Assembly (NCBI RefSeq): GCF_013167455.1
Contig: NZ_CP038328.1
DNA from: Escherichia coli O157:H7
Lineage (GTDB): Bacteria; Pseudomonadota; Gammaproteobacteria; Enterobacterales; Enterobacteriaceae
Direction: 5' to 3' (one strand)
DNA: 64,000 nt
Below, piece after piece: positions 27,001 to 30,000 of this stretch. Numbering within the stretch: the first letter of the stretch is position 1; each line of letters begins with the position of its first letter. A program made the position numbers.

Positions 27001-30000
27001 TAAACAGGTCATTGACGCTGTAAAGCTCCAGGTTGTTAAAGAGCATTTTGCGGCGGGTTAAGTCGCGCCGTACGACTGATTTATGTAGCCCTGTGTAAGG
27101 GCGCGATGTTTCTGGCTTGAAAGAAATATAACTTGCGGTGATTTTTATGTAAATACCGTTAGTGGTTATTGGGGGTGAAAAAATATTACTTAACTGATTT
27201 TTAAAGTGATTTATTTTTTAAGGGGACAGATAACAGGAGGGGATATGCAAAGAAAAACCCGGCGCATGGGCCGGGCTATTTATCTGGTCCTGTTCTCATT
27301 CAGTAGAGTAGGGGCCAAGAAATCGCACTCCGTTGAAGTGAATAAGATGAGAAGGTGCATCAGCCACCCATACCTCTGTTTCCCATGCGATTTCACCAAG
27401 ATATCGCCCCATGATGGAGCGATTTGGAAAAGCGGTCACATAGACAAGTCCGGCTGTTGATCCGGCAAACAGCCTGGCAAGCTCAGCATGCCGCTTCCCA
27501 TCAACCGGTCCATGACTGGTGACAGACTCAACCAGTAGCAGCCAGTTTTTCGCAGTAAAATGTAGCACCACATCTGGCATTTTACCGTGTGAATCCACAT
27601 CAACACCTAGCCCGGCCAGCAGTGGAGCGTCGAAGTAGCCCCACTTTTCGCCAGTGTCGCCAGCATAGACCAGCACGCTACCCGGAGCAAAACGTGGGGC
27701 GAAGTCCTCTATTATGGCACGGATAAGTTCGCTGTGCTCGCCGGGACTGAGGGTTATTTGCTGGCCCGCAGCAATTTCAACAGGGATACGATTCTGTTCG
27801 CGCTCCTTAGCATAGCGGGTAACCAGCGTTTCACGCTCGGCTAAATAGGTTGCAAGGCTATCGTGCCATGCCGGGCTGCCGAAAGTGCGTAGCATGGACA
27901 GAGCAGCAGGTTCGATCTGATAAACAGCCTTCGGGCTGTTCACTGGGCGATCGGGCTTGTCCGGATTGTAGAGGGCTACTCCAGCAGCGCAGAACTGATG
28001 CATAGACTGGCGGCGGAATGTCTCACGAGTATTGGGTGCGTAGACCTTGCCGTAGTGCTCCCGAACCCAATTCATGATTGGTGTAATGCCCACAAGCGGA
28101 TTTTCCGCGTCGGCCCATGCTTTTCCCGGTGTGAGGTTCAGGAGTGCCAGCAAACACAAAGCAGAACGCTCATTCTGCTGCGCTCTGGGCAGGCCTAAGG
28201 ATGCTATAATTTGCTGAGCGGCCTCAATATAATCATTTTGGTTGTTCATGCAGTCAGAGCTCCTAGCTTAGCGTCAATATGTTCTTGCGTGAGAGTTTCT
28301 TGTTGCATAGCCCACTTGCCAAGCTCTATCAGAGTGTCACGGCTTGGGTACTTAATCATCTTGAGGTCGGTTGCATTGACCTGTGTATGCCCGTTGAAGC
28401 GACGGAAGTACTTATCCACTGCGGTAGTGTTCAGGAACACGGCCAAGCCACGGGCCAGCGCCTCGGGTAACCCATGTTTGTTCTCATGAAACACGTTCAT
28501 GTGATTTTCAAATCCCAACACTGAATACTCACTGAAGGTAGCAGGATCAACGACGCTTGCTACCACTCGGCGCTTTTCCTCCTTCGACGAGAAACGACGC
28601 ACCACACAATAAAAACCGTTCGGGTAAAGCCACTTTTCTGTCTCGTCGTTGCGCATGATTGCGTTGGGTTTCTTCAAACCTTCCACAGGCCAGACAGTGC
28701 TACTCATACTCAAATGGCTCGGGTAGATCAGGGGAACAGTTCCTTCTTCTGGCATGCTGCGCAAATGAGCTTTCAGTCGGAAATCAACTATCGGTCCGGT
28801 CGATACCTTCACGCCAATATCAGCCAGCGAACATTGTACGGCAGATGATAACTCAATGGTGCTTTTCTCGAGCGTGGTCGGCACATGAATAAACCGCTCC
28901 GAATCGTCCGGGTACACAATCTGGTCAAATGGGTGTTCGTAGGTGACCAGGTCAAAAAAGCTATCATCGGTCGAAGTTGTGACTGTAACAGCCTCCTGAC
29001 GGCCTCCACGCTCCAGGCGGATGATAATATTTTCCTGCAACACATCGTCATCCCTGAAAGCTTTGCTACGTGATTCGAACAAATGAATATGGCGGATTGC
29101 TGCCCGCTCAAGTATGAAATTACGGAACGGACGGTAATACGGTCCGTTGCAGAAACTACGTGGGATTATGGCCACTATCTGCCCGCCAGGTGCAACCTCA
29201 CCTACAGCCAGTGCAACAAAGGCGGAATACAGATTTACCGTCTCGATACCGACAGTGCGAAGAGCCTGCCGGTGGGCTGACTGGCTATTGATCTTCTTGT
29301 AAGGCGGATTAAGTATTGCATGGGTATAACCTCGATCCTGTAGACCTTCGGCGGTTGCCAGCTCAATATAATCCCCTTCGATGATGCGGGGCGTCACTCT
29401 CCTGTACCCGGTTAAGTGCTTCGCAAGGTGACCACACAGCTTTTTGTCGATTTCGTAGGCTGTTGCCTCGACAGACTCAAAGCCAAACTCGCCAACCAGC
29501 CAACGGTCGAGGAAGGCGCAAGACAGTGCGCCTAAACCAGCGCCTGCGTCCAGTAGACGGCAAGTTTTCATTGTGCTCGGTGGAAACAAGGAGGCCATAA
29601 AACGGGCCACGCCAGAAGGCGTCATGAACTGGCCGAACTCTGCTTTGTGTTTACGCGCGGTACGGGGAGACAGCTCGCGACGCACGCTGTCTGCGACGTC
29701 TAGCTTTTGAAGCATAACTAATCCTCTTTACGTGGCATGATGATGCCAACGTGCTTTTGACATCCTCCACATTCTTCAGGCGTGAAGGATGTCAAATCAC
29801 TCTGTGAGCTCAATCAAAAGTCTCATCATTCCACTGCGATTTGATGACCTTTCCGACAAACTGGCAGTTTTCGTTACACTCAATCATGTCGAATCGTGGG
29901 TTGAGCGGCTCCAGGTACGCTTTACCGCTCTCACGAATGAATCGTTTGAAGGTAAATTCATCGCCGTTCATTCGGGCCACGCAAAAATCGCCATCCTCGA

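Follow-up and report, generated by a model that had tools for sequence, protein, structure and literature searches.

A PstI-type restriction-modification gene pair identical in protein sequence to EcoGIII lies directly behind cI in a Shiga toxin 1a prophage of Escherichia coli O157:H7

The immunity region of a lambdoid Stx1a prophage in E. coli O157:H7 (contig NZ_CP038328.1 of assembly GCF_013167455.1) includes two large genes on the downstream side of the cI repressor gene, where lambda carries rexA and rexB. The question that this locus raises is whether the two genes constitute a working restriction-modification (R-M) system and, if so, how a lysogen would express it. The window analyzed is a 64,000-nucleotide stretch of this contig, to which all coordinates refer. 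The gene pair is almost certainly RM.EcoGIII, a type II R-M system of the PstI isoschizomer type, which forms a 2.5-kb cargo directly downstream of cI. The features of the locus are the following.

27256-27277, minus strand: intrinsic terminator, a GC-rich 8-bp stem followed by the U-run UUUUUCUUU (-14.5 kcal/mol)
27275-29795, minus strand: exchangeable R-M cassette, delimited by homology breakpoints with sister prophages
27296-28249, minus strand: R.EcoGIII, a BsuBI/PstI-family type II restriction endonuclease of 317 amino acids (ORF, Pfam, SdaI match, PADLOC)
28246-29715, minus strand: M.EcoGIII, a gamma-class N6-adenine DNA methyltransferase of 489 amino acids (ORF, Pfam, PADLOC, motifs)
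29733-29748, minus strand: small second hairpin in the leader of M, TGGCAT-GATG-ATGCCA when read on the plus strand (-6.7 kcal/mol)
29755-29797, minus strand: intercistronic stem-loop with arms at 29757-29770 and 29782-29795 and no U-tract after it
29810-30523, minus strand: cI repressor of the LexA/S24 family, 237 amino acids (ORF), upstream of M and R on the same strand

The ORF list and the sequence confirmed the layout given in the original prediction, i.e., the coordinates of both ORFs, their 4-nt overlap, and a 94-bp gap (29716-29809) that separates the start of M from the end of cI. The stop codon of M and the start codon of R, which lie on the same strand, share the sequence ATGA at nucleotides 28246-28249. 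This overlap suggests that translation of the two genes may be coupled, and from it we infer that the genes are probably co-expressed.

The earlier assignment of the two products to a type II PstI/BsuBI-like endonuclease and an NPPY-type methylase held in all the protein comparisons. Residues 155-307 of R matched positions 1-153 of the 154 positions of the Pfam model BsuBI_PstI_RE (PF06616, E 6e-61), its N-terminal helix-turn-helix (HTH) domain corresponds to PF17728 (Pfam, residues 7-143, E 2e-54), and the SdaI structure 2ixs was matched over residues 8-315, that is, over the full length of the protein (E 1e-77). PADLOC identified R as REase_II (558 bits) and M as MTase_II (822 bits), both with full-length type II R-M models. 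M showed a match to the Pfam Eco57I methylase domain (E 5e-9) and includes the motifs FGQFMTP (residues 27-33), DAGAGLG (residues 56-62), and NPPY (residues 136-139); the order of these motifs, with the AdoMet motif I ahead of the NPPY motif IV, is that of a gamma-class N6-adenine methyltransferase. Motif X begins at residue 27, and M does not include an N-terminal HTH extension. The ORF list shows no gene for a controller (C) protein, with no ORF in the cI-M interval or at the M-R junction.

The catalytic positions of R were compared with those of SdaI, whose catalytic triad, according to Tamulaitiene et al. (2006), reportedly consists of D233, E248, and K251. The PD dipeptide at residues 225-226 (D226) and E241 of R are conserved with PD233 and E248, and in the same alignment Thr244 is found opposite K251. 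The catalytic lysine may be supplied by another part of the protein. Taken alone Thr244 would look suspicious, but this is overridden because the identical protein has been reported to be active.

That identical protein is encoded by E. coli O104:H4 C227-11. Both R and M of the window are 100% identical to their C227-11 counterparts (WP_001064714.1 and WP_000939558.1, respectively), as is the cI protein. At the DNA level the segment 27227-30600 differs from C227-11 by two single nucleotide polymorphisms, both synonymous, and there are no differences in the leader between cI and M or in the OR region. When the comparison is extended to 27000-30600 the number rises to 14, of which 12 are clustered at 27123-27226, just to the left of the terminator. 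The primary paper on RM.EcoGIII of C227-11 is that of Fang et al. 2012 in Nat Biotechnol. By its identity to EcoGIII the pair is predicted to be functional, which for the identical genes has already been known since 2012.

The activity of these proteins is described in papers that cite Fang et al. 2012, as follows. EcoGIII carries out CTGC(m6A)G methylation and CTGCAG cleavage, holds off lambda-like phages, and influences growth (PMC6602927). Methylation covered 98.8% of the CTGCAG sites when a sister phage was lysogenic, and the identical R was biochemically active (PMC3893438). The cloned system limits the transfer of conjugating plasmids (PMC4288162), and restriction of plasmids by EcoGIII was about 10^4-fold, sites with a methylated A remaining uncut (PMC7736820). 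Finally, 1,951 genes were differentially expressed in a mutant with a deletion of RM.EcoGIII (PMC4659465). The near-complete methylation of CTGCAG in sister lysogens indicates that lysogens produce M, and shows only that. Together with the 100% identity, the published activities support two further elements of the original prediction, namely the CTGCAG specificity and a restriction barrier that the lysogen would probably possess.

Two other views of the pair have to be weighed against these results. It could be a decayed or silent remnant, in which an inactive nuclease accompanies an orphan methylase or neither gene is expressed. Decay does occur at this locus: in strain G8 and in three IMG/VR loci (L008, L014, L017) the last 104 codons of R remain and M is gone, the stem-loop being kept, and in another (L011) R is truncated. 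The threonine at the position aligned to the SdaI lysine would also fit a dead enzyme. On the other hand, both ORFs of the window are intact and encode proteins identical to the experimentally active ones, the cI-M leader and the OR region are the same as in C227-11, and sister lysogens methylate nearly all of their CTGCAG sites, all of which leaves a remnant extremely improbable. A different view accepts that the pair is active and holds that its main selected role is prophage addiction (killing of cells that have lost the prophage, after segregation), epigenetic reprogramming of the host, or both, with restriction as a by-product. The large number of transcripts altered by deletion of RM.EcoGIII, together with the effect on growth, agrees with this, and the HicAB and Panacea-domain toxin-antitoxin cargo that sister phages carry in the same slot suggests a preference for addiction modules. 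Against it, lambda-like phages and plasmids are directly restricted according to the published reports, and we consider it unlikely that restriction is the by-product; defense, addiction, and reprogramming are not mutually exclusive, and we do not rank them here.

As for the sites on which the system would act, the whole window shows no avoidance or enrichment of CTGCAG, with 13 sites against 17.4 +/- 4.4 expected. The original prediction had pointed to a CTGCAG in argW and in a copy of its attachment sequence. The first part stands, as argW includes this hexamer and a 16-bp repeat elsewhere carries it too; the latter cannot be taken as the attachment site of the R-M prophage since it belongs to the neighboring intS element.

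12442-12516: argW, tRNA-Arg-CCT, with CTGCAG inside at 12451-12456
3897-3912: 16-bp repeat with CTGCAG, a boundary of the intS (CPS-53-like) element, which lies 3' of argW
12637-13881: integrase of the R-M prophage, which starts on the other side of argW

The position of the pair behind cI was described in the original prediction as equivalent to that of rexAB, and the evidence agrees: M and R follow cI on its own strand, with a strong terminator after them. The same positional analogy is drawn in PMC5977221, where the lambda order cI-rexA-rexB-OL-N is contrasted with this phage type. The OR1-OR3 footprint sequences published in that report are present at about 30532-30592. The intrinsic terminator is located 18 nt past the R stop, and a similar hairpin is found at the corresponding position in two variant sister prophages (L006 and L007, see below). 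This terminator is likely the end of a cI-M-R transcript, analogous to lambda tIMM, and pRM of cI is presumed to be the source of transcription in the lysogen.

A simple consensus scan found no canonical promoter in the cI-M gap. TTGACA is present in both arms of the stem-loop, and by manual reading neither copy is paired with a suitable -10 element 16-18 nt away. No terminator-like site was found on the sense strand of the gap, the sole match being 29733-29748 on the plus strand; the minus-strand RNA of this small hairpin reads UGGCAU-CAUC-AUGCCA. A Shine-Dalgarno sequence, GAGGA, follows it and is located 6 nt ahead of the ATG of M. Because the scan of the gap found neither a consensus promoter nor, on the sense strand, a terminator-like site, and because the stem-loop is followed by AAAGCACG and not by a U-tract, a single cI-M-R message seems probable, although the simple scan may have overlooked an internal promoter. 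The T-tract hairpin behind cI in L006, whose cargo is on the opposite strand, is in line with this reading.

The inverted repeat of this gap had been noticed in the original prediction, and it does exist, at 29757-29795. The 10-bp repeat TTGACATCCT / AGGATGTCAA (29757-29766 and 29786-29795) extends to 14 bp. The minus-strand RNA, which is the sense strand, folds into a 16-bp stem in which G.U pairs are the only imperfect ones (-22 kcal/mol), and the plus-strand fold reaches -17.8 kcal/mol with an internal mismatch. For the 126-nt intergenic RNA we obtained z = -3.7 against shuffles. Rfam assigned no family to the stem-loop, giving only sub-threshold miRNA-like noise.

The occurrence of this element in other replicons bears directly on its role. 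In IMG/VR, 19 loci with the 14-nt arms were recovered by a pattern scan. In 14 of the 19 the arrangement is as in the window, with the hairpin followed by M, and variants of the loop occur; two of the loops (L018 and L024) carry a true CTGCAG, while the window loop has CTTCAG. Three of the 19 are of the G8 type, with a wholly different loop and no M. The same arms were also found between convergent genes of an actinophage-like contig with 69% GC (L025), probably by coincidence. The stem-loop is missing from the variant L006, in which HicA and HicB are encoded on the opposite strand and a T-tract hairpin comes after cI. When the arms were relaxed, near-identical hairpins (TTGACATCCTCCACGTCCTTTAGGACGTGGAGGATGTCAA) appeared in unrelated places of other enterobacterial phages. 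By BLAST the hairpin family was present in 170 of 5,426 E. coli genomes, 107 of its 195 places being on plasmids. In L033 a tail-fibre-like gene precedes the hairpin, with 1 nt between its stop codon and the hairpin, and the ATG of the following gene is 28 nt further on; in L132 the hairpin overlaps the stop codon of paa; and on plasmids of about 97 kb it is found ahead of the holin gene, at a distance of about 65 nt. These plasmids include phage genes for tail-fibre assembly, holin, and lysis, and we read them as P1-like phage-plasmids. A scan with 10-nt arms over 100,044 genomes gave 94 matches in unrelated phyla, a number that agrees with a rough chance estimate and is uninformative.

Because the stem-loop recurs behind unrelated genes of further phages and plasmids it is not specific to the R-M pair, and the part of the original prediction that took it for a possible regulatory site does not stand for a site specific to the R-M genes. 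The notion of a dedicated operator, bound by M, cI, or a C-like controller, or acting as a methylation sensor, could draw on the location of the repeat 40 nt upstream of the M start, on the conservation of its arms while the loops vary, and on the two loops that include CTGCAG. It has to contend, however, with the lack of any C-protein ORF and of an HTH extension in M, with the persistence of the stem-loop in G8-type loci that have no M, and with the near-identical copies near tail-fibre-like, paa, and holin genes. The likeness of the arms to the published OR1-3 is moreover limited to the heptamer TTGACAT, and an operator function is therefore very unlikely. The repeat could instead be a full terminator of cI, as also suggested originally, with M and R transcribed from a promoter of their own. 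Its start about 14 nt past the cI stop and its stability would suit such a role, as would the members of the family that directly follow the stop codons of other genes; yet the next bases, AAAGCACG, do not form a U-tract, the terminator scan made no call, no consensus promoter lies between the stem-loop and M, and in L033 the same hairpin is intercistronic. We consider a full terminator doubtful. The best reading of the stem-loop is a portable intercistronic or 3'-end element, acting as a decay barrier or a weak attenuator, for which operator or full terminator would be less likely alternatives. A broader proposal, according to which the arms TTGACATCCTYCAC / GTGRAGGATGTCAA define an undescribed family of sequence-conserved intercistronic hairpins that have no U-tract and mark cargo junctions of E. 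coli phages and phage-plasmids, serving as a portable element for differential expression (decay block or attenuation) or as a preferred recombination joint for the exchange of cassettes such as the R-M, HicAB, and Panacea modules downstream of cI, is distinctly improbable as it stands. The recurrence of this hairpin family at cargo junctions is nevertheless the sole loose end of the locus with any novelty.

The limits of the cargo were defined by comparison with sister prophages. In L006, whose cI is 97.5% identical, HicA and HicB replace the R-M genes, and homology to the window ends at 27274 and restarts at 29796. In L007 the R-M homology starts at 27277, and the region 27277-30221, which includes R, M, the leader, and the C-terminal domain of cI, is common to both at 95%. 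This prophage is heteroimmune, as both the N-terminus of cI and cro are different, and it carries an additional Panacea-domain module between R and the terminator. From these breakpoints nucleotides 27275-29795 can therefore be considered a cassette that is open to exchange, in a slot behind cI whose cargo varies. The G+C content of the cassette is 52%, as compared to 47% for the neighboring early left region.

L007 diverges from the window in 27132-27276 and 30222-30837, the pattern that would be expected if OL were located within 27132-27276. The original prediction had presumed a pL region of the lambda type to the left of the pair. What we found to the left of R is, in this order, the terminator, a short immunity-specific stretch, two small RNAs, and a Rha-family gene; there was no recognizable pL-N.

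26707-26782, minus strand: isrK (Rfam, above the gathering score)
26595-26682, minus strand: C4 antisense RNA (Rfam, above the gathering score)

A promoter-like site stops 7 nt short of isrK. Local alignment of the OR region with 26679-27295 gave a score of 19, which was attained by 105 of 300 shuffles, so the OR2-like sequence at 27125-27143 and the OR3-like sequence at 27226-27247 were rejected as OL for lack of statistical support. A pL-like promoter at 27153-27125 was also discarded, being one of 4 matches where 4.6 are expected by chance.

The 3.6-kb segment 27000-30600 was found in 98 phage records with 99.6-100% identity, mostly from Stx2a-converting phages, among them P13374, phiON-2011, TL-2011c, and Shigella phage Ss-VASD, whose annotations name a DNA methylase and a restriction endonuclease of the BsuBI type. 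The same segment is present in 146 of 5,426 complete E. coli genomes. For Stx2a phages of the PST2 type, a bsuBI system has been noted within the early regulatory region (PMC4587872).

From these data the following sequence of events can be proposed. In the lysogen a cI-M-R message would be produced from pRM, and during establishment it would come from pRE; it would pass the stem-loop after cI and stop at the intrinsic terminator after R. The stem-loop would probably act as an intercistronic stabilizer of the mRNA or as an attenuator, uncoupling the levels of cI from those of M and R. With M preceding R, and with the ATGA overlap, the methylase would be made before or together with the nuclease during establishment. 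M would methylate the adenine of CTGCAG in the DNA of host and prophage alike, and R, a homolog of SdaI and presumed PD-(D/E)XK nuclease that has an HTH domain at its N-terminus, would cut unmethylated CTGCAG of incoming phages or plasmids. The lysogen would thereby acquire a barrier wider than repressor immunity, and CTGCAG methylation would probably also shift host gene expression. The significance of the pair would be that Shiga toxin lysogens can restrict other phages and plasmids that enter the cell, and that its methylation rewires host transcription. The present analysis adds the boundaries of the cassette, the variability of the cargo behind cI, and the recognition that the inverted repeat is a hairpin found recurrently, not an operator of the R-M genes.

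The closest known system is that of C227-11, with which the gene order cro-cI-M-R-terminator is shared. The carriers differ, being a Stx1a prophage beside argW in this strain and a Stx2a phage at wrbA in C227-11. In lambda, rexAB is co-transcribed with cI. As in the case of rexA-rexB, the cargo described here is downstream of cI on the same strand, has a terminator at its end, would be expressed in the lysogen, and would exclude other phages. The proteins are unrelated, however, and exclusion proceeds by abortive infection in lambda and would proceed by restriction here; in addition, the leftward region of this prophage, unlike that of lambda, does not include an identifiable N gene. SdaI (2ixs) has the same two-domain architecture as R, in which the PD and E positions are conserved and Thr244 is aligned with K251. 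The recognition site of SdaI is the 8-bp sequence CCTGCAGG. With both of its domains R belongs to BsuBI_PstI_RE, the Pfam family of PstI from Providencia stuartii and BsuBI from Bacillus subtilis, and the reported specificity of EcoGIII, CTGCAG with m6A, is the same as that of these two systems. The PstI genes are divergent, and M and R are in tandem and overlap in the locus described here. Finally, the PstI and BsuBI systems are chromosomal, whereas EcoGIII is a prophage cargo located in the immunity region.

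To the left of the EcoGIII R-M system, beyond the intrinsic terminator that follows R, the minus strand of the window carries two small RNA genes and a Rha-family reading frame:

26707-26782 (-), isrK sRNA, gathering-level match in Rfam
26595-26682 (-), C4 antisense RNA, gathering-level match in Rfam
25893-26678 (-), Rha-family ORF, a mechanical ORF call with the same start annotated in phage P13374

A promoter-like site, TTGACT-18-TATATT, ends 7 nt upstream of isrK, and the region 26595-26818 (-) as a whole looks like a P1 immI-like sRNA/antirepressor control module. The same isrK/C4 stretch has been described as non-coding, with OL and N not identifiable (PMC5977221). 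As called, approximately 29 N-terminal codons of the Rha-family ORF overlap the C4 RNA, and its codons 1-46 look non-protein-like; the true start is probably an internal ATG near 26540 (MATIPALSQ...). When the window was compared with E. coli O104:H4 C227-11 over 27000-30600, 12 of the 14 nucleotide differences fell in 27123-27226, just left of the terminator, while cI was identical. Mosaicism could account for this cluster, or else the presumed OL/pL region may tolerate change at this point.

No CTGCAG site, the recognition sequence of EcoGIII, occurs across the 21 kb between 12457 and 33612, where about 5.7 would be expected from the shuffle-derived rate. This stretch spans the early-left, immunity, R-M and replication-start regions; by our own estimate the longest-gap statistic is only marginal (P roughly 0.02-0.08).

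The loop of the hairpin located between cI and M is CTTCAG in the window and CTGCAG in two IMG/VR loci, L018 (2286-2324) and L024 (4232-4270). M is otherwise intact in both, and with the altered loop a cognate site falls about 60 nt ahead of the M start, a possible candidate for a methylation-sensitive element. The 14-nt arms also recur at 644-683 of L025, an actinophage-like contig of 69% GC, as part of a perfect 18-bp hairpin that sits between convergent genes and whose loop core, CTTCAGG, is similar too; this likeness is probably a coincidence.

The slot behind cI holds other cargo in sister prophages:

L006, 2770-3911, HicA/HicB
L007, 2633-3808, a Panacea-domain protein and a partner, stacked beside the R-M system
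L005 (strain G8), 3114-3273, an unrelated 160-bp filler replacing M and the 5' portion of R

Further features lie elsewhere in the window:

14759-15385 (-); 16539-17163 (-), 208-aa ORF, with sRNA-Xcc1 (Rfam) present twice nearby
36342-37298, stxA1a (NCBIfam, 729 bits, exceeding the cut-off)
37656-37869 (+), STnc100 sRNA, just downstream of stxA1a
37871-37930 (-), AgvB sRNA, also just downstream of stxA1a
51240-51356, ALIL pseudoknot (IS3-family frameshift signal), adjoining a 296-aa ORF (-), the whole covering 50424-51356 (-)

The pseudoknot beside the 296-aa ORF suggests that the late or structural region of the prophage holds an IS3-family insertion. In length and relative position the 208-aa ORF equals an annotated MT-A70-family methyltransferase of L004, a related O157 prophage; it is a candidate for a second phage methylase, of the orphan kind.

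Two integrative elements flank argW, one on each side (3897-12516). Between argW and a 16-bp repeat of its 3' end (3897-3912) lies a CPS-53/KpLE1-like intS remnant including P22-like ejection genes, and on the 5' side of argW begins the Stx prophage, with its own integrase (12637-13881). Database carriers of the EcoGIII R-M system are mostly Stx2a phages; the prophage bearing it here is Stx1a-converting.
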